Positions 2,822 through 38,578 of a stretch of 64,000 nt of DNA are shown piece by piece. Position 1 is the stretch's first letter; each line of letters begins with the position of its first letter. The position numbers and the translations under genes are program-made. The notes beneath the pieces were generated by a model. The model was given only the letters and a program-made list of their open reading frames with translations, was not told the DNA's origin and searched no databases. Source of the DNA: Escherichia coli (GTDB lineage: Bacteria > Pseudomonadota > Gammaproteobacteria > Enterobacterales > Enterobacteriaceae); assembly GCF_050920415.1 (NCBI RefSeq), contig NZ_CP169309.1. One strand, given 5' to 3'.

Positions 2822-3456
2822 TGTATCAGCCTGATTTTCCTCACGTACCTTTTCGTTTAGGACTGTACCCGGTAGTGGACAGCGTACAGTGGATCGAACG
2901 TCTGTTGGATGCAGGCGTGCGTACTCTCCAGCTGCGCATCAAAGATCGGCGCGATGAAGAGGTGGAAGCCGATGTCGTAGCAGCAATTGCGCTGGGCCGC
3001 CGCTATAACGCACGGCTGTTTATCAACGATTACTGGCAGCTGGCGATTAAGCATCAGGCGTATGGCGTCCATTTGGGGCAGGAAGATTTGCAATCTACCG
3101 ATCTCAATGCCATCCGCGCGGCAGGCCTGCGGCTGGGCGTTTCGACACATGATGATATGGAGATCGACGTCGCGTTGGCAGCACGTCCTTCTTATATCGC
3201 GCTAGGACATGTGTTCCCGACGCAAACCAAACAGATGCCTTCTGCACCGCAGGGGCTGGAACAGCTGGCACGGCATGTTGAGCGCCTGGCGGATTATCCC
3301 ACCGTGGCGATTGGCGGTATCAGTCTGCCGCGCGCGCCTGCGGTGATAGCAACGGGTGTCGGCAGTATCGCCGTTGTCAGCGCCATTACTCAAGCCGCAG
3401 ACTGGCGTTTGGCAACAGCACAGTTGCTGGAAATTGCAGGAGTTGGCGATGAATGA
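2821..3456 (+). CDS. thiE: Thiamine-phosphate synthase ThiE, 211 aa
   Basis: ORF track 2818..3456; start moved to ATG 2821, which overlaps the thiC stop (TGATG) and gives the canonical MYQPDFP N-terminus. Confidence 0.9.
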
Positions 3457-4204
3457 CCGTGACTTTATGCGTTATAGCCGCCAAATCCTGCTCGACGATA
3501 TCGCTCTTGACGGGCAGCAAAAACTGCTCGACAGCCAGGTGCTGATTATCGGTCTGGGTGGGTTGGGTACACCTGCTGCGCTATACCTGGCGGGAGCTGG
3601 TGTCGGGACGCTGGTACTGGCAGATGACGACGATGTGCATTTGAGCAATCTGCAACGACAAATCCTCTTTACGACTGAAGATATCGATCGCCCGAAATCG
3701 CAGGTCAGCCAACAGCGACTGACACAGTTGAATCCCGACATTCAACTGACAGCATTACAACAACGGTTAACGGGTAAGGCGTTAAAAGATGCGGTAGCAC
3801 GGGCCGATGTGGTACTCGACTGTACCGACAACATGGCGACTCGCCAGGAGATTAATACCGCCTGCGTAGCACTTAACACACCGCTTATCATCGCCAGCGC
3901 GGTCGGATTTGGTGGTCAGTTGATGGTGCTGACACCGCCCTGGGAACAGGGGTGTTACCGCTGCCTGTGGCCGGATAACCAGGAGCCAGAACGCAACTGC
4001 CGCACGGCGGGCGTGGTTGGCCCGGTGGTCGGGGTCATGGGCACGTTACAGGCACTGGAAGCAATTAAGCTATTGAGTGGTATAGAGACCCCTGCGGGAT
4101 ATCTTCGACTGTTTGACGGTAAATTAAACCAATGGCGCAACCTGGCGTTGCGCCGTGCCAGCAGTTGCCCAGTATGCGGAGGAAGCAATGCAGATCCTGT
4201 TTAA
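3449..4204 (+). CDS. thiF: ThiS adenylyltransferase ThiF, 251 aa
   Basis: ORF track 3356..4204 is N-terminally extended; known ThiF begins [12 protein letters not shown] at ATG 3449, overlapping the thiE stop. Confidence 0.9.
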
Positions 4205-4389: not shown

Positions 4390-5160
4390 ATGTTACGTAT
4401 TGCGGGCAAAACGTTTGATTCACATCTGTTTACCGGCACCGGGAAATTCGCCTCTTCACAATTGATGGTGGAGGCGATCCGCGCTTCCGGCAGCCAACTG
4501 GTGACGCTGGCGATGAAACGTGTCGACTTGCGCCAACACAACGATGCTATCCTCGATCCACTTATCGCGGCGGGTGTGACACTACTGCCAAATACTTCTG
4601 GGGCGAAAACTGCGGAAGAAGCCATTTTCGCCGCTCATCTGGCACGTGAAGCGTTAGGCACAAACTGGCTAAAATTAGAGATTCACCCTGACGCCCGCTG
4701 GCTGTTGCCCGATCCCATCGAAACCCTGAAAGCCGCCGAAATGTTGGTGCAACAGGGATTTGTCGTGCTGCCTTACTGCGGTGCCGATCCAGTGTTGTGC
4801 AAACGTCTGGAGGAAGTGGGCTGTGCAGCAGTAATGCCGCTCGGCGCACCAATTGGCTCTAATCAGGGACTGGAAACCCGCGCCATGCTGGAGATTATTA
4901 TCCAGCAAGCCACGGTTCCGGTGGTCGTTGATGCTGGCATTGGCGTTCCCAGCCATGCCGCGCAGGCGCTTGAAATGGGAGCCGATGCGGTGTTAGTGAA
5001 TACGGCGATTGCCGTCGCGGACGATCCCGTCAACATGGCGAAGGCATTTCGTCTGGCGGTAGACGCCGGCCTGCTGGCACGTCAGTCCGGGCCGGGCAGT
5101 CGCAGTCATTTTGCTCATGCCACTAGCCCGCTGACCGGATTTCTGGAGGCATCGGCATGA
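4390..5160 (+). CDS. thiG: Thiazole synthase ThiG, 256 aa
   Basis: ORF track 4279..5160 is extended; known start [11 protein letters not shown] at 4390, one nt after the thiS stop. Confidence 0.92.
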
Positions 5161-6290
5161 AAACCTTCAGCGATCGCTGGCGACAACTGGACTGGGACGA
5201 CATCCGCCTGCGTATCAACAGCAAAACGGCTGCTGACGTAGAGCGGGCGCTCAATGCCTCGCAACTCACTCGCGACGATATGATGGCATTGCTATCACCT
5301 GCCGCCAGTGAATACCTGGAACCACTGGCTCAACGGGCGCAGCGTCTGACCCGTCAGCGATTTGGCAACGTCATCAGCTTCTACGTCCCGCTTTATCTCT
5401 CTAATCTTTGCGCTAACGACTGCACTTACTGCGGATTTTCCATGAGCAATCGCATCAAGCGTAAAACGCTGGATGAAGCGGATATCGCCAGGGAAAGCGC
5501 CGCTATCCGGGAGATGGGCTTTGAACATCTATTGCTGGTCACTGGTGAACATCAGACGAAAGTGGGGATGGATTACTTTCGTCGTCATCTCCCTGTCCTG
5601 CGTGAACAGTTCTCTTCACTACAGATGGAAGTACAGCCACTGGCGGAAGCGGAATACGCCGAGTTAAAGCAACTTGGTCTGGATGGGGTGATGGTTTATC
5701 AGGAGACATATCACGAGGCGACATACGCCCACCATCATCTGAAAGGGAAAAAACAGGACTTCTTCTGGCGGCTGGAAACGCCGGATCGGCTGGGCCGTGC
5801 GGGGATAGATAAGATAGGCCTCGGCGCGCTAATCGGCCTTTCCGACAGCTGGCGCGTTGACTGCTATATGGTTGCCGAACATTTGCTATGGCTGCAACAA
5901 CATTACTGGCAAAGCCGTTACTCTGTCTCCTTCCCGCGCCTGCGCCCGTGTACTGGCGGGATTGAGCCAGCGTCGATTATGGATGAACGCCAGTTAGTGC
6001 AAACTATCTGCGCCTTCCGCCTACTTGCGCCGGAGATTGAACTGTCACTCTCCACGCGGGAATCACCGTGGTTTCGCGATCGCGTTATTCCGCTGGCGAT
6101 CAATAACGTCAGCGCCTTCTCGAAAACGCAACCAGGTGGTTATGCCGACAATCATCCCGAGCTGGAACAGTTCTCACCGCACGACGATCGCAGACCAGAA
6201 GCGGTGGCCGCCGCGTTAACCGCTCAGGGTTTGCAGCCGGTGTGGAAAGACTGGGACAGCTATCTGGGACGCGCCTCGCAAAGGACATGA
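5157..6290 (+). CDS. thiH: 2-iminoacetate synthase (tyrosine lyase) ThiH, radical SAM, 377 aa
   Basis: ORF track; [10 protein letters not shown] radical-SAM motif; overlaps thiG stop by 4 nt. Confidence 0.93.
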
Positions 6291-6340
6291 GACAAAATGT
6301 AAGAACGTAAATTTATTCCGAGCAGCTACGGAAGATGAAA

Positions 6341-6377
6341 AACGCAAGGTTGTTGAAAGCGTTGCGTTTTTTTATGT
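6341..6377 (+). terminator. Putative rho-independent terminator of the thi operon
   Basis: Inverted repeat AACGCAA...TTGCGTT followed by a T7 run, about 50 nt after the thiH stop. Confidence 0.5.
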
Positions 6378-6539
6378 TAGTACCGTCAGCAGGAATGTTG
6401 TCCAGGGCGAAAAGCTTCTTCCTCGTTTCGCCCTGCCTTTCTTAAAAATTCCGTAATGCAAAGTCTGAAGCCATCGCCTGTTGAGCAATGAAAGAGATCT
6501 GATTGTAAGAGAGTAAATACTCAACTATCATAGAGACGA

Positions 6540-6707
6540 AAATAAGAACACATGTTCTCATCTTCCAGGATGCAGCAGACTGAAGAAATTCAGACATCCC
6601 GCAACCTGCGATTATCGCAAGGTCAAGGCAAAGTCCGGTAATGGCGTTCTGAATACCAGAGATAATTCTCTGGCGAAACCCACCTTAAGGTGGGTTTTGT
6701 TATTTTG
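6540..6707 (+). ncRNA. Candidate small RNA in the thiH-yjaZ intergenic region (possibly SroH-like)
   Basis: About 400 nt ORF-free spacer; plus-strand hairpin AACCCACC-TTAA-GGTGGGTT followed by a T-rich tract at 6678-6707; recalled from memory that an sRNA is annotated at this locus in K-12; 5' end not determinable from sequence. Confidence 0.3.
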
Positions 6708-7239
6708 ATGGCTGAGGAAGCTGCTTATTTCTCAATAAGTTGTAGGCAATGGTGAAAAATTTCACTGATTTACCTTTCTGTTTTTCAGAAATGGGATAAG
6801 CGCTAGTTACATGCAAACGAAGTTTTTTCTTTTCCCTGAAAGCCCTGAACGCAACAAAGTAAAATGCCTTGTCTCCTCCGTTTAAATCCACTTCAATCAC
6901 GGCATAGCTACCATACCCAGCATGAATAACGTTGCTTTCTGGCAGCGCCAAAATGGTTCTTTTTAAGTGTATGCGCGCTAAGTTATAACGGTGCTGGCAG
7001 AAGGGACGAGATTCTTTAGGCGCGTGGTACATTAACGATTGTTTTTCTTCGTTAGTCTGATGTTCATAATCTTTTGTGAAGCAGTGAAGAGAGTAGGTAA
7101 CCCAGAAGCGATACTCTAAAGGCTCTTTGCCCTCATGATGCTGAACGTAGACAGCCTGATGAGCATCAAGAAATGATAAATCACGAATATCACCATCCGG
7201 ATGTCCAAAAGGTCGCCACTTCTCCACTTCCTGTTTCAT
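6700..7239 (-). CDS. yjaZ: YjaZ/HtrC family protein, 179 aa
   Basis: ORF track; sequence recognisable as E. coli YjaZ. Confidence 0.88.
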   Translation of the reverse strand: MKQEVEKWRPFGHPDGDIRDLSFLDAHQAVYVQHHEGKEPLEYRFWVTYSLHCFTKDYEHQTNEEKQSLMYHAPKESRPFCQHRYNLARIHLKRTILALPESNVIHAGYGSYAVIEVDLNGGDKAFYFVAFRAFREKKKLRLHVTSAYPISEKQKGKSVKFFTIAYNLLRNKQLPQPSK

Positions 7240-7403
7240 TATCGTTCCTTAAGAAAGTCACACAGGAATAGTATCGAATTCTTGCCGAGCTTGACTCAAT
7301 TAGTTCAGTCAGTTTCAGGATATTAGTCATCTCTACATTGATTATGAGTATCCAGAAATTCATTAAATATTCTGACAAATGCTCTTTCCCTAAACTACCC
7401 CCA

Positions 7404-7431
7404 TAAAAAAACCCGCCGAAGCGGGTTTTTA
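7404..7431 (-). terminator. rpoC rho-independent terminator
   Basis: Minus strand: AAAAACCCGC-TTCG-GCGGGTTTTTTT, about 20 nt after the rpoC stop. Confidence 0.8.
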
Positions 7432-7451
7432 CGTTATTTGCGGATTAACGA

Positions 7452-16025: not shown

Positions 16026-16060
16026 GCGCAAAAAGGCTGGTGACTAAAAAGTCACCAGCC
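16026..16060 (-). terminator. rplL-rpoB intergenic attenuator (partial terminator)
   Basis: Minus strand: GGCTGGTGACTTTTTAGTCACCAGCC followed by TTTTTGCG, about 40 nt after the rplL stop; matches the known L7/L12-beta attenuator position. Confidence 0.7.
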
Positions 16061-16099
16061 ATCAGCCTGATTTCTCAGGCTGCAACCGGAAGGGTTGGC

Positions 16100-21196: not shown

Positions 21197-21272
21197 TGGT
21201 GCTGATAGGCAGATTCGAACTGCCGACCTCACCCTTACCAAGGGTGCGCTCTACCAACTGAGCTATATCAGC
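21197..21272 (-). tRNA. thrT: tRNA-Thr (anticodon GGU)
   Basis: Minus-strand sequence GCTGATATAGCTCAGTTGGTAGAGC...CCTTGGTAAGGG...ACCA; cloverleaf with GGT anticodon and encoded CCA. Confidence 0.93.
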
Positions 21273-21278
21273 ACATCT

Positions 21279-21353
<75 letters not shown>

Positions 21354-21469
21354 ATCCTGGAACTCGGCTACCTGATTTTCATTCTGCACTGAATATCGAG
21401 AGAAGCTCTCTTTATTCGAGCCGGTAAGCGAACTTATCGTCTCGGGCTACGCCATCGCGTGGCCGAAAT

Positions 21470-21554
<85 letters not shown>

Positions 21555-21562
21555 GGACTTGA

Positions 21563-21638
<76 letters not shown>

Positions 21639-25103: not shown

Positions 25104-25223
25104 ATGCCTGGCAGTTCCCTACTCTCGCATGGGGAGACCCCACACTACCATCGGCGCTACGGCGTTTCACTTCTGAGTTCGGCATGGGGTCAGGTGGGAC
25201 CACCGCGCTAAGGCCGCCAGGCA
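25104..25223 (-). rRNA. rrfB: 5S ribosomal RNA (120 nt)
   Basis: Minus strand begins TGCCTGGCGGCC and ends CTGCCAGGCAT; full match to the E. coli 5S sequence as recalled. Confidence 0.95.
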
Positions 25224-25316
25224 AATTCTGTTTCATCAGACCGCTTCTGCGTTCTGATTTAATCTGTATCAGGCTGAAAATCTTCTCTCAATCCGCCAAA
25301 ACATCTTCGGCGTTGT

Positions 25317-28218
<2,902 letters not shown>

Positions 28219-28412
28219 TCACAACCCGAAAATGTTTCTTTCGATTCATCATCGTGTTGCGAAAATTTGAGAGACTCACGAACAACTTTCGTTGTTCAGT
28301 GTTTCAATTTTCAGCTTGATCCAGATTTTTAAAGAGCAAATATCTTAAACATGACTCGTAAGTCATCTTTAACGATATCAAGGTCGGCGACTTTCACTCA
28401 CAAACCAGCAAG

Positions 28413-28488
28413 TGGCGTCCCCTAGGGGATTCGAACCCCTGTTACCGCCGTGAAAGGGCGGTGTCCTGGGCCTCTAGACGAAGGGGAC
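28413..28488 (-). tRNA. gltT: tRNA-Glu (anticodon UUC) in the 16S-23S spacer
   Basis: Minus-strand sequence GTCCCCTTCGTCTAGAGGCCCAGGACACCGCCCTTTCACGGCGG...GACGCCA. Confidence 0.93.
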
Positions 28489-28658
28489 ACGAAAATTGCT
28501 TATCACGCGCTGCGTGATATTTTCGTGTAGGGTGAGCTTTCATTAACAGAAAGCGAACGGCCTTATTCTCTTCAGCCTCACTCCCAACGCGTAAACGCCT
28601 TGCTATTCACTTTTCATCGACAATCTGTGTGAGCACTGCAAAGAACAGTTCTTTAAGG

Positions 28659-30200
<1,542 letters not shown>

Positions 30201-33224: not shown

Positions 33225-33460
33225 AGCATCCACAATAGAAGAAGGATGCCGCAGGCTTCATCAATATTACGCGATGATGAGAACCAGATGCGACGTTAGC
33301 CGGCAGGTCTTCGGGCTTGGAGGGGTATATAAAATACTAAGAGATGATGACTTCCCACCGGATGGCAGTGTCCGCATAACGCAATCATCGCACCTTTCCT
33401 TACCGCTGCGCGTCAGCTCCAGATTTGCACTGGATTCCCTATTAACTCACAGGACCGGCG
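33225..33460 (-). promoter_or_regulatory. Cobalamin (B12) riboswitch in the btuB leader
   Basis: Minus-strand leader GCCGGTCCTGTGAGTTAATAGGGAATCCAGTGCGAATCTGGAGCTGACGCGCAGCGGTAAGGAAAGGTGCGATGATTGCG... matches the known btuB B12 element. Confidence 0.8.
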
Positions 33461-33587
33461 AGTGGATGCTACAGGTTGTAACAAGTTGCTGTCCAGACGT
33501 AGCTCACAAATAGGAATACATCAAGATCTGGACATCTGATGAGCAATCCCTACAATCGCCGCGTACATTTCATTTTCAGGATACATC

Positions 33588-38464: not shown

Positions 38465-38578
38465 GAAACGGAGCGGCACCTCTTTTAACCCTTGAAGTCA
38501 CTGCCCGTTTCGAGAGTTTCTCAACTCGAATAACTAAAGCCAACGTGAACTTTTGCGGATCTCCAGGATCCGCTTTTT
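38465..38578 (+). ncRNA. oxyS: OxyS small regulatory RNA
   Basis: Sequence GAAACGGAGCGGCACCTCTTTTAACCCTTGAAGTCACTGCCCGTTTCGAGAGTTTCTCAACTCGAATAACTAAAGCCAACGTGAACTTTTGCGGATCTCCAGGATCCGCTTTTTTTT recognised, including the terminal hairpin and U-tract. Confidence 0.88.

Follow-up and report, generated by a model that had tools for sequence, protein, structure and literature searches.

The stretch of DNA analysed here (the window) comprises 64,000 nucleotides (nt) of Escherichia coli, contig NZ_CP169309.1 of RefSeq assembly GCF_050920415.1, and the element in question lies between thiH and the convergent gene yjaZ, where an initial annotation made from the sequence had flagged positions 6378-6707 as a candidate small RNA (sRNA). 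The flagged element is almost certainly SroH, a known E. coli sRNA. SroH itself was already known and the earlier reading of it is correct; what the comparison adds to that reading is a tie between the RNA and yjaZ. As judged from comparative sequence evidence, sroH and yjaZ are a self-contained, horizontally mobile two-gene unit, and functional coupling of SroH and YjaZ is very probable. There is about an even chance that SroH would act with or on YjaZ, possibly as an antitoxin-like inhibitor. The first description of SroH reportedly came from the E. coli RNomics screen by Vogel et al. in 2003, and in published papers it is described as being of unknown function.

The sroH gene occupies 6538-6707 on the plus strand and consists of a full-length match to the Rfam family RF00372 (sroH) at 6538-6698 (201.1 bits against a gathering score of 80, E = 2.1e-49, model positions 1-161 of 161) and a U-rich tail to about 6707. 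All testable defining features of the Rfam family were found, namely its score and an intergenic position between thiH and yjaZ on the thiH strand. The initial annotation had named SroH as an sRNA reported at this locus, proposing a comparison with the Rfam model, and had guessed a transcript of about 150-300 nt, which agrees with the 161 nt plus tail observed. The flagged interval holds the RNA only in its 3' part, 6538-6707, and the remainder, 6378-6537, contains a separate hairpin (6403-6435) and the promoter. The minimum free energy of the SroH fold is -58.8 kcal/mol (z = -5.6), and none of 200 shuffled sequences folded as well.

Co-occurrence of SroH and YjaZ

A protein-defined set of 57 loci (loci are designated by L numbers) was fetched from species-representative genomes by YjaZ alone. 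Homologues of YjaZ (NF007263, PF27200) have a patchy distribution that takes in Escherichia fergusonii, plasmids of Raoultella, Klebsiella, Enterobacter and Serratia, the genera Pantoea, Aeromonas and Oceanimonas, and cyanobacteria. A permissive scan with the Rfam sroH model matched all 11 of the nearest loci opposite yjaZ and directly past its stop codon, with scores from 195 to 41.5 bits. A covariance model, R1, was built from the RNAs of the nearest loci and matched over its full length, at 81-174 bits, all testable loci whose YjaZ reaches about 40% identity or more, including 19 cyanobacterial loci, Psychrobacter, Lonepinella, a Woeseiaceae metagenome-assembled genome (MAG) and a Streptococcus MAG. 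Among these protein-defined close homologues the RNA adjoins yjaZ in 35 of 35 testable loci and is convergent with it, ending at the stop codon, in 34 of the 35; no intact close yjaZ homologue was seen without the RNA in the testable loci of this set. The only rearranged module seen was in a Thiomargarita MAG (L027, 2640-2870), in which the RNA lies just upstream of yjaZ in the same direction and has an insertion of about 100 nt in the P2 loop. The curated Rfam model, applied to ten such loci, gave 43-79 bits, under its gathering score of 80.

The converse, RNA-defined set was obtained with a DNA pattern for the RNA alone, which retrieved 3 viral (IMG/VR) and 86 metagenomic loci with 90 occurrences. 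The C-terminus of a convergent yjaZ abutted the RNA in 75 of the 90 (75 of the 85 testable), 5 were cut by the contig end, and 10 were orphans. The orphan RNAs are intact, as their scores of 100-157 bits indicate, and retain a TTGTTA remnant of the stop codon. Counted by cluster, yjaZ was found only in a deleted, truncated or frameshifted state in 7-8 of 32 testable RNA clusters. The neighbours of the orphan RNAs include a classical RelE-family toxin gene (in the four related contigs L066, L112, L123 and L130), a PIN-like DUF5615 gene (L129) and the start of a C5 DNA methyltransferase gene (L094/L103), and the module therefore resides where toxin-antitoxin and restriction-modification genes abound. 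A metagenome contig with a coverage of about 3984 (L100) carries two identical RNA-yjaZ modules, at 3321-3499 and 5783-5961, about 2.5 kb apart.

Hosts of the module include the E. coli chromosome, about 100 plasmids, Aeromonas, Marinomonas, Pseudomonas, Psychrobacter, Pasteurellaceae and many cyanobacteria. The RNA was matched in 104 plasmid records, 50 of them conjugative, and on 3 IMG/VR contigs, and no YjaZ homologue was found among 50,697 phage genome records. Clustering of 1,048 flanking open reading frames (ORFs) from 131 loci gave no recurrent third partner gene, and returned only the E. coli-specific thi and rpoC neighbours.

The spacer of the locus was also compared by sequence with E. 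coli genomes, all coordinates being window positions unless a locus is named. Both genes, the sroH promoter and presumably that of yjaZ lie in a variable, AT-rich segment of about 950 bp (about 6453-7399) with a GC content of 41%, compared with 55% in thiH and 54% in rpoC. Of 5,426 complete E. coli genomes, 3,739 (about 69%; segment count 3,728-3,739) contain sroH and about 31% lack it, and sroH is at least 99% identical in 3,733 of 3,741 matching E. coli records. The match was limited to the thiH-proximal 162 nt of the spacer in about 1,700 of 5,420 genomes. Published work reports sroH to be missing from phylogroups B2 and D and from some Shigella (PMC3318445). In the ST131 strain CU568-3 rpoC comes directly after thiH, and alignment places the missing stretch at about 6453-7399 of the window, which includes the region upstream of yjaZ (7240-7399, minus strand, 35% GC). 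About 27 nt of loosely similar sequence are retained at the left junction in ST131, suggesting a deletion rather than a lineage that never had the segment. Repeats by which the segment could be recognised as a transposable unit were looked for and not found: Tandem Repeats Finder (TRF) gave no tandem repeat at 6380-7450, and terminal repeats are lacking too.

Decay of yjaZ beside an unchanged RNA is also seen within E. coli. The yjaZ gene of the O157:H7 strain Rafaela_II (L151) has a frame-shifting internal deletion of 71 nt (window about 6769-6839) that takes out the invariant, most conserved motif region of YjaZ, REKKKLRLHVTSAYP, and the adjoining sroH is 100% identical to the window copy. 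In about 310 E. coli genomes sroH is present and the yjaZ segment deleted in O157:H7 is absent. RefSeq lists the deletion allele as a 147-amino-acid (aa) 'protein HtrC'.

More distant YjaZ-like proteins (26-37% identity) were found in Pseudomonas, Vibrio, Pantoea, Erwinia, Enterobacter, Izhakiella, Pseudoalteromonas and Thermosynechococcus. Each of these loci that was read has, likewise convergent and in the corresponding place, a diverged RNA with the architecture of SroH, which R1 scored at 13-33 bits or missed; RNA and protein have therefore diverged together. This second subtype (type 2), described from raw locus sequences, has the layout GGGUG-GUUACAGG-[P2]-CACCC-CGY-[P4]-...GGUAAC-RCG-UCCUGCCCC-[P5]-CUGAG-[terminator], with stems numbered as in the next section. 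Type 2 RNAs were seen across L038-L056; they fall under the sroH gathering score, and no other Rfam family was matched in the one locus scanned (L011).

Promoter, terminator and fold of SroH

The initial annotation had proposed a separate plus-strand transcript, and a promoter-like site, a plus-oriented terminator and published transcripts (PMC5389530) all speak for one. The predicted sigma-70-like promoter (6503-6531, plus strand) has a -35 element TTGTAA at 6503-6508, a 17-nt spacer and a -10 element TATCAT at 6526-6531, with 9 of 12 consensus matches, its last position being 7 nt before the Rfam match begins at 6538. A sigma-70 promoter that matches the consensus at 9/12 or more, its -10 element ending 8-9 nt upstream of stem P1, is present in at least 17 of 33 homologues and implies an RNA of about 130 nt. 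The E. coli promoter is about 30 nt further upstream than in most homologues and so adds a lineage-specific 5' hairpin. This E. coli-specific extension (6538-6567, plus strand) contains the small hairpin GAAC-ACAU-GUUC at 6546-6557 and is not conserved outside Escherichia: the alignments have none upstream of GGAUGC, and plasmid homologues match from about 6567 on.

At the 3' end, a second plus-strand terminator had been placed at 6678-6707, with a T-tract overlapping the yjaZ stop codon. The terminator is present, with its start lying one to two bases before 6678: the core AAACCCACC-TTAA-GGTGGGTTT occupies 6676-6697 and extends to a 13-bp stem at 6672-6701 that is followed by UUAUUUUG, and the overlap is as described, the complement of the stop codon (TTA, 6700-6702) lying inside the U-rich tail. 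The plus-strand stem at 6672-6701 has a folding energy of -19.5 kcal/mol (z = -5.2), of which the consensus model draws 11 bp, 6674-6699. On the minus strand the same hairpin has 9 bp and -13.8 kcal/mol, and CGCC rather than a U-tract comes after it; the terminator is therefore oriented for the plus strand.

The conserved part of SroH, about 140 nt at 6568-6707, comprises five stems plus the terminator, a pseudoknot and four invariant single-stranded motifs, all on the plus strand. P1 (GGAUG 6568-6572 / CAUCC 6595-6599) is 99-100% paired and encloses an invariant CAGCAGA loop (6573-6579) and P2 (CUGAA 6580-6584 / UUCAG 6589-6593), in which 4 of 4 consensus-model pairs are changed on both sides. 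P3 (CGC 6600-6602 / GCG 6644-6646), with 3 of 3 pairs covarying, encloses P4 and a conserved junction, GGUC-AAGGCAAAGU-CCGGUAA (6621-6641); the closing pairs of P4 (ACC 6604-6606 and GGU 6621-6623) are invariant and its inner stem is different in each lineage. The pseudoknot is formed by CAGA (6576-6579) and UCUG (6648-6651), the latter within the invariant junction UUCUGAAUA (6647-6655), and is 100% paired in alignment A5. P5 (CCAGAGA 6656-6662 / UCUCUGG 6667-6673) has 7 of 7 pairs changed on both sides. P6 is the terminator, CGAAACCCACC-UUAA-GGUGGGUUUUG (6674-6684 / 6689-6699, with the tail UUAUUUUG to 6707), in which 7 of 11 pairs covary and which stands back to back with the end of yjaZ.

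In an alignment of 34 genome-derived sequences 99.0% of cells are paired, 23 of 33 pairs are changed on both sides, and the covariation score is 0.482, against 0.18 in shuffles (0 of 500 reaching 0.482) and at most 0.091 in slid controls. An independent set of 39 distinct metagenomic sequences is 98.5% paired with a covariation of 0.402 against at most 0.083; the alignments in these structure tests had been fitted to the model and are thereby biased towards its structure. Support for most helices was already given by RNAalifold run on a plain MAFFT alignment. Compensatory variants of the pseudoknot are CGGA/UCCG (L035), CAGG/CCUG (type 2) and again CAGA/UCUG (L049), and the G.A beside it is replaced by A.G in three sequences and by A-U in one. 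Conserved nucleotides are almost all located in stems, the pseudoknot or junctions, and the motifs GCAGCAGAC, GGUCGAGG, CCGGUAA and UUCUGAAUACC vary hardly at all between E. coli and cyanobacteria, the partner proteins being only 45-50% identical.

The strand of the fold can be read from its wobble pairs. Across homologues G.U pairs outnumber A.C pairs by 64:3 and 67:1, which places the fold on the plus (SroH) strand. A structure formed as a 3' untranslated region (3'UTR) element on the yjaZ strand was considered and is ruled out by these ratios, which also exclude the case, raised in the initial annotation, that the hairpin is only a yjaZ terminator.

YjaZ and possible modes of action

The yjaZ gene (6700-7239, minus strand; stop codon read as TTA on the plus strand at 6700-6702) encodes a protein of 179 aa that matches NCBIfam NF007263 over its full length at 427.5 bits (cut-off 324), and its homologues are all labelled PF27200. 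It was formerly named htrC, a designation that has been retracted (PMC11551758). YjaZ proteins are of about 180 aa and basic, with an isoelectric point (pI) of 9.4 in the window and a median of 9.1 among homologues. The AlphaFold2 (AF2) model has a predicted local distance difference test (pLDDT) score of 88 and is that of a soluble alpha/beta protein whose C-terminal two thirds have an alpha-alpha-beta4-alpha topology. No match to YjaZ was found in the Pfam copy, PADLOC, PHROGs or PDB sequence profiles searched, and no Pfam toxin family was matched by 28 YjaZ members or 10 distant relatives. Grouped at 50% identity, the superfamily forms 685 clusters in an exhaustive profile search; nearly all consist of stand-alone proteins, and no fusion was informative. 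One protein of 1,019 aa (P0185) matches positions 28-74 of the YjaZ profile in 17 separate stretches, together with scattered partial Pfam matches, and looks like a low-complexity or repeat artefact. The nearest structural neighbours of the YjaZ model are mostly of the RelE/ParE/HigB superfamily, with HigB2 ranked first by Foldseek. The weak RelE-like fold signal did not hold up, and the hhalign probability against a RelE was 0.2%.

A mechanism consistent with these data is that SroH exerts its main function through YjaZ, the folded RNA most likely being bound by the basic protein and acting either as an inhibitor, in the manner of an RNA antitoxin, or as an obligatory RNA subunit; it would then probably be no classical base-pairing sRNA. 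That the coupling takes the form of direct SroH-YjaZ binding has a likelihood a little short of even. Direct recognition is favoured because invariance of the loops and junctions across phyla is not needed for pairing to a cis-encoded target, because adjacency survives the loss of convergence in L027, and because there is no excess complementarity to the start region of yjaZ: duplexes of SroH with positions -80 to +40 were no better than those of shuffles (mean z = +0.38, n = 61; 1 of 61 below -2) in a crude test made with RNAduplex on whole sequences. The basic pI of YjaZ was also counted in favour of recognition by the protein. That SroH would be an inhibitor rather than a cofactor is rather doubtful; such a role is suggested by the decay of yjaZ while the RNA stays perfect (in the RNA clusters, in O157:H7 and in the approximately 310 genomes), and plasmid carriage and the toxin and restriction-modification neighbourhood were counted for it as well.

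Taken together, SroH and YjaZ may tentatively be proposed as an undescribed class of two-component RNA-protein module, a proposal that is plausible while falling short of probable. Its components would be a pseudoknotted RNA of about 130 nt, present in one copy and having its own promoter, and a basic protein of about 180 aa that is encoded convergently and shares a terminator with the RNA. Horizontal transfer would have carried this module through Gammaproteobacteria, Cyanobacteria and further groups in at least two co-diverged subtypes, and the RNA would either bind and restrain the protein, as a new kind of RNA antitoxin outside types I and III, or be its essential subunit.

Several points weigh against coupling through the protein. 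All evidence for coupling of sroH and yjaZ is comparative, and the asymmetry between the protein- and RNA-defined sets is partly built in, each search needing an intact query feature. The stop codon lies 0-3 nt past the terminator stem in 34 of 34 homologues, as an antisense RNA overlapping the 3' end would likewise predict. Deletion of sroH in K-12 is viable and is reported only as envelope-stress sensitive (cited in PMC5389530), and viable sroH deletions argue against a potent toxin at native expression. SroH bound kbl mRNA in one in vitro electrophoretic mobility shift assay (EMSA; PMC6172242) and was enriched in Hfq photoactivatable ribonucleoside-enhanced crosslinking and immunoprecipitation (PAR-CLIP), the authors of which state that it is not an established Hfq target (bioRxiv 10.1101/2020.06.29.178624); these two observations leave room for a trans-acting role. 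Other published work describes SroH as a primary transcript whose 3' end carries poly(A) tails and of which full-length and processed forms build up in a pcnB mutant (PMC5389530), and a further report gives it as more abundant in stationary phase (bioRxiv 10.64898/2025.12.22.696124).

The main rival is cis-antisense control through the shared terminator, in which SroH would regulate yjaZ by formation of a duplex that is degraded (for example by RNase III) or by interference from the strong sroH promoter. A yjaZ mRNA extended into or past the hairpin would be complementary to SroH, an arrangement like that of type I toxin-antitoxin pairs with overlapping 3' ends. Besides the fixed stop-codon spacing of 0-3 nt after the stem in 34/34 homologues, it is favoured by convergence in 75 of the 75 RNA-defined loci with yjaZ, by the lack of a U-tract after the yjaZ-strand hairpin, which makes read-through into antisense SroH plausible, and by the near-consensus promoters of many homologues, as often found for antitoxin RNAs. 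A pure cis-antisense RNA needs no conserved sequence, since its complementarity is automatic, whereas SroH has four single-stranded motifs and a pseudoknot conserved across phyla. The lack of excess pairing to the yjaZ start region, the RNA kept on the same strand beside yjaZ in L027 and the ten orphan RNAs that are structurally intact without yjaZ also count against cis-antisense control, which is judged unlikely.

It is quite improbable that SroH is an ordinary Hfq-associated, trans-acting sRNA (with targets such as kbl or envelope functions) whose proximity to yjaZ is a by-product of a shared mobile segment. The Hfq PAR-CLIP enrichment, the kbl EMSA, the envelope-stress sensitivity of the deletion (cited in PMC5389530), and a Rho-independent terminator with a U-rich tail would fit such an sRNA, but cyanobacteria, Pseudomonas and Marinomonas, whose target repertoires are unrelated, also have the RNA conserved together with YjaZ, and nearly all of the RNA lies in covarying stems and the pseudoknot, leaving no obvious free seed. 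The U-tail is interrupted (UUUUGUUAUUUUG), the PAR-CLIP authors themselves do not regard SroH as an established Hfq target, and overexpression of SroH gave no biofilm or motility phenotype (PMC4606813).

The compact pseudoknot and invariant junction nucleotides of SroH are typical of aptamers and small ribozymes, and the conserved fold could in principle be a ligand sensor or a ribozyme, with YjaZ processing or responding to the RNA. This is highly improbable, as no Rfam riboswitch or ribozyme was matched even at permissive thresholds, the RNA is not in a 5' leader, and it has no expression platform, the terminator being constitutive with no competing stem. The reading that there is no separate RNA gene, only a yjaZ terminator plus a 3'UTR element or a small protein, could appeal to the hairpin directly after the yjaZ stop codon and to a 29-aa ORF in E. 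coli (6552-6641), but has a practically negligible likelihood given the G.U to A.C ratios of 64:3 and 67:1 in favour of the SroH strand, the U-tract found only on the plus strand, the plus-facing promoters, the published transcripts (PMC5389530) and the inconstant length of the peptides (4-54 aa).

Known systems and surroundings of the module

The module is somewhat toxin-antitoxin (TA)-like and is a member of neither type I nor type III. Type III TA systems (ToxIN, CptIN, TenpIN) have a tandem-repeat RNA that is encoded upstream of the toxin in the same orientation and is cut into units by it. The sroH-yjaZ module resembles them in pairing a structured, pseudoknotted RNA with one protein, in its plasmid carriage and patchy distribution, and in having a terminator between the RNA and the protein gene. 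It differs in that SroH is single copy in all homologues, with no tandem repeat (TRF, 6380-7450), in that YjaZ has no known similarity to ToxN/AbiQ, and in gene order, the RNA being convergent in 75/75 RNA-defined and 34/35 protein-defined loci and co-directional only in L027.

Among type I TA systems, Bacillus subtilis txpA/RatA and bsrG/SR4 have a convergent 3' overlap, and E. coli SymE/SymR and RalR/RalA have enzyme toxins. Convergent RNA and protein genes with overlapping 3' ends, a strong RNA promoter, orphan RNAs and decayed protein genes are features shared with this type. Unlike the small membrane peptides of type I, YjaZ is a basic protein of 179 aa modelled as soluble; the certain overlap is limited to the terminator, the sequence and tertiary fold of the RNA are conserved across phyla, and no start-region pairing was found. 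Bidirectional intrinsic terminators are hairpins between convergent genes with A-rich 5' and U-rich 3' flanks. The hairpin between sroH and yjaZ has this position and both flanks, but is unequal on its two sides (13 bp and a U-tail for sroH, 9 bp without a U-tract for yjaZ), and its distance from the stop codon is constant across phyla.

RF00372 describes the same gene, with a consensus structure of the terminator hairpin only, in contrast to the multi-stem, pseudoknotted fold found here. Its gathering score of 80 leaves out the cyanobacterial, Aeromonas, Marinomonas, Psychrobacter and Pasteurellaceae homologues (41-79 bits), and a link to YjaZ is not part of the family in the Rfam copy used. 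Neither Rfam nor the searchable literature, the coverage of which is incomplete, yielded a description of the conserved fold of SroH, of its two subtypes or of its almost obligatory pairing with YjaZ, and no paper in the literature so covered was found to link SroH with YjaZ/HtrC or to treat SroH as an antitoxin. The comparison ties two genes of unknown function (SroH for about two decades, and YjaZ after the loss of the htrC label) into one testable pair and, should that pair turn out to serve addiction or defence, its RNA-protein architecture would fit neither type I nor type III TA. A revised Rfam sroH family could include a true secondary structure and many more members.

The module is present in most laboratory E. 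coli strains, and RefSeq E. coli annotations mostly omit sroH. In the RefSeq/PGAP annotation sroH is unannotated in K-12 W3110 (L001) and in most E. coli matches, for which the features under the match are 'none' or only yjaZ. The gene order thiH(+)-sroH-yjaZ(-) is the same in K-12 W3110, and the thiH-yjaZ spacer of the window is 100% identical to that of strain MFDS1022581 and 98.6% identical to that of K-12.

Upstream of the module, the thiH ORF (5157-6290, plus strand) has its stop at 6290 and is directly followed by the intrinsic terminator of the thiCEFSGH operon (6337-6377, plus strand). This terminator, put at about 6341-6377 in the initial annotation, was found as a hairpin at 6337-6372 (-16.5 kcal/mol, z = -4.6) and a U run to about 6377. 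A second hairpin, CAGGGCGAAA / TTTCGCCCTG (6403-6435, plus strand), is a 10-bp perfect inverted repeat (I4) with -15 kcal/mol and z = -3.3, located outside the sroH-yjaZ module, between the thi terminator and the module. It is kept in ST131 CU568-3, which lacks the module, and may be a back-up terminator. The spacer contains only short ORFs of 29-51 aa, one of them the 29-aa ORF at 6552-6641, in agreement with the earlier remark that no credible ORF is present. A small protein starting at the invariant ATG of the RNA core was considered and rejected; peptides from homologues range from 4 to 54 aa and have only MQQT in common, so the ORF at this ATG is not conserved.

Other Rfam matches at the gathering threshold in the window are a thiamine pyrophosphate (TPP) riboswitch in the thiC leader, P26, a cobalamin riboswitch and OxyS, along with four tRNAs downstream of 21200, one tRNA in the rRNA spacer, and a full rRNA operon with StyR-44. 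These matches lie at 745-845, 16034-16095, 21200-21638, 25106-30200, 33285-33474 and 38465-38574, and all are expected for this region of E. coli.

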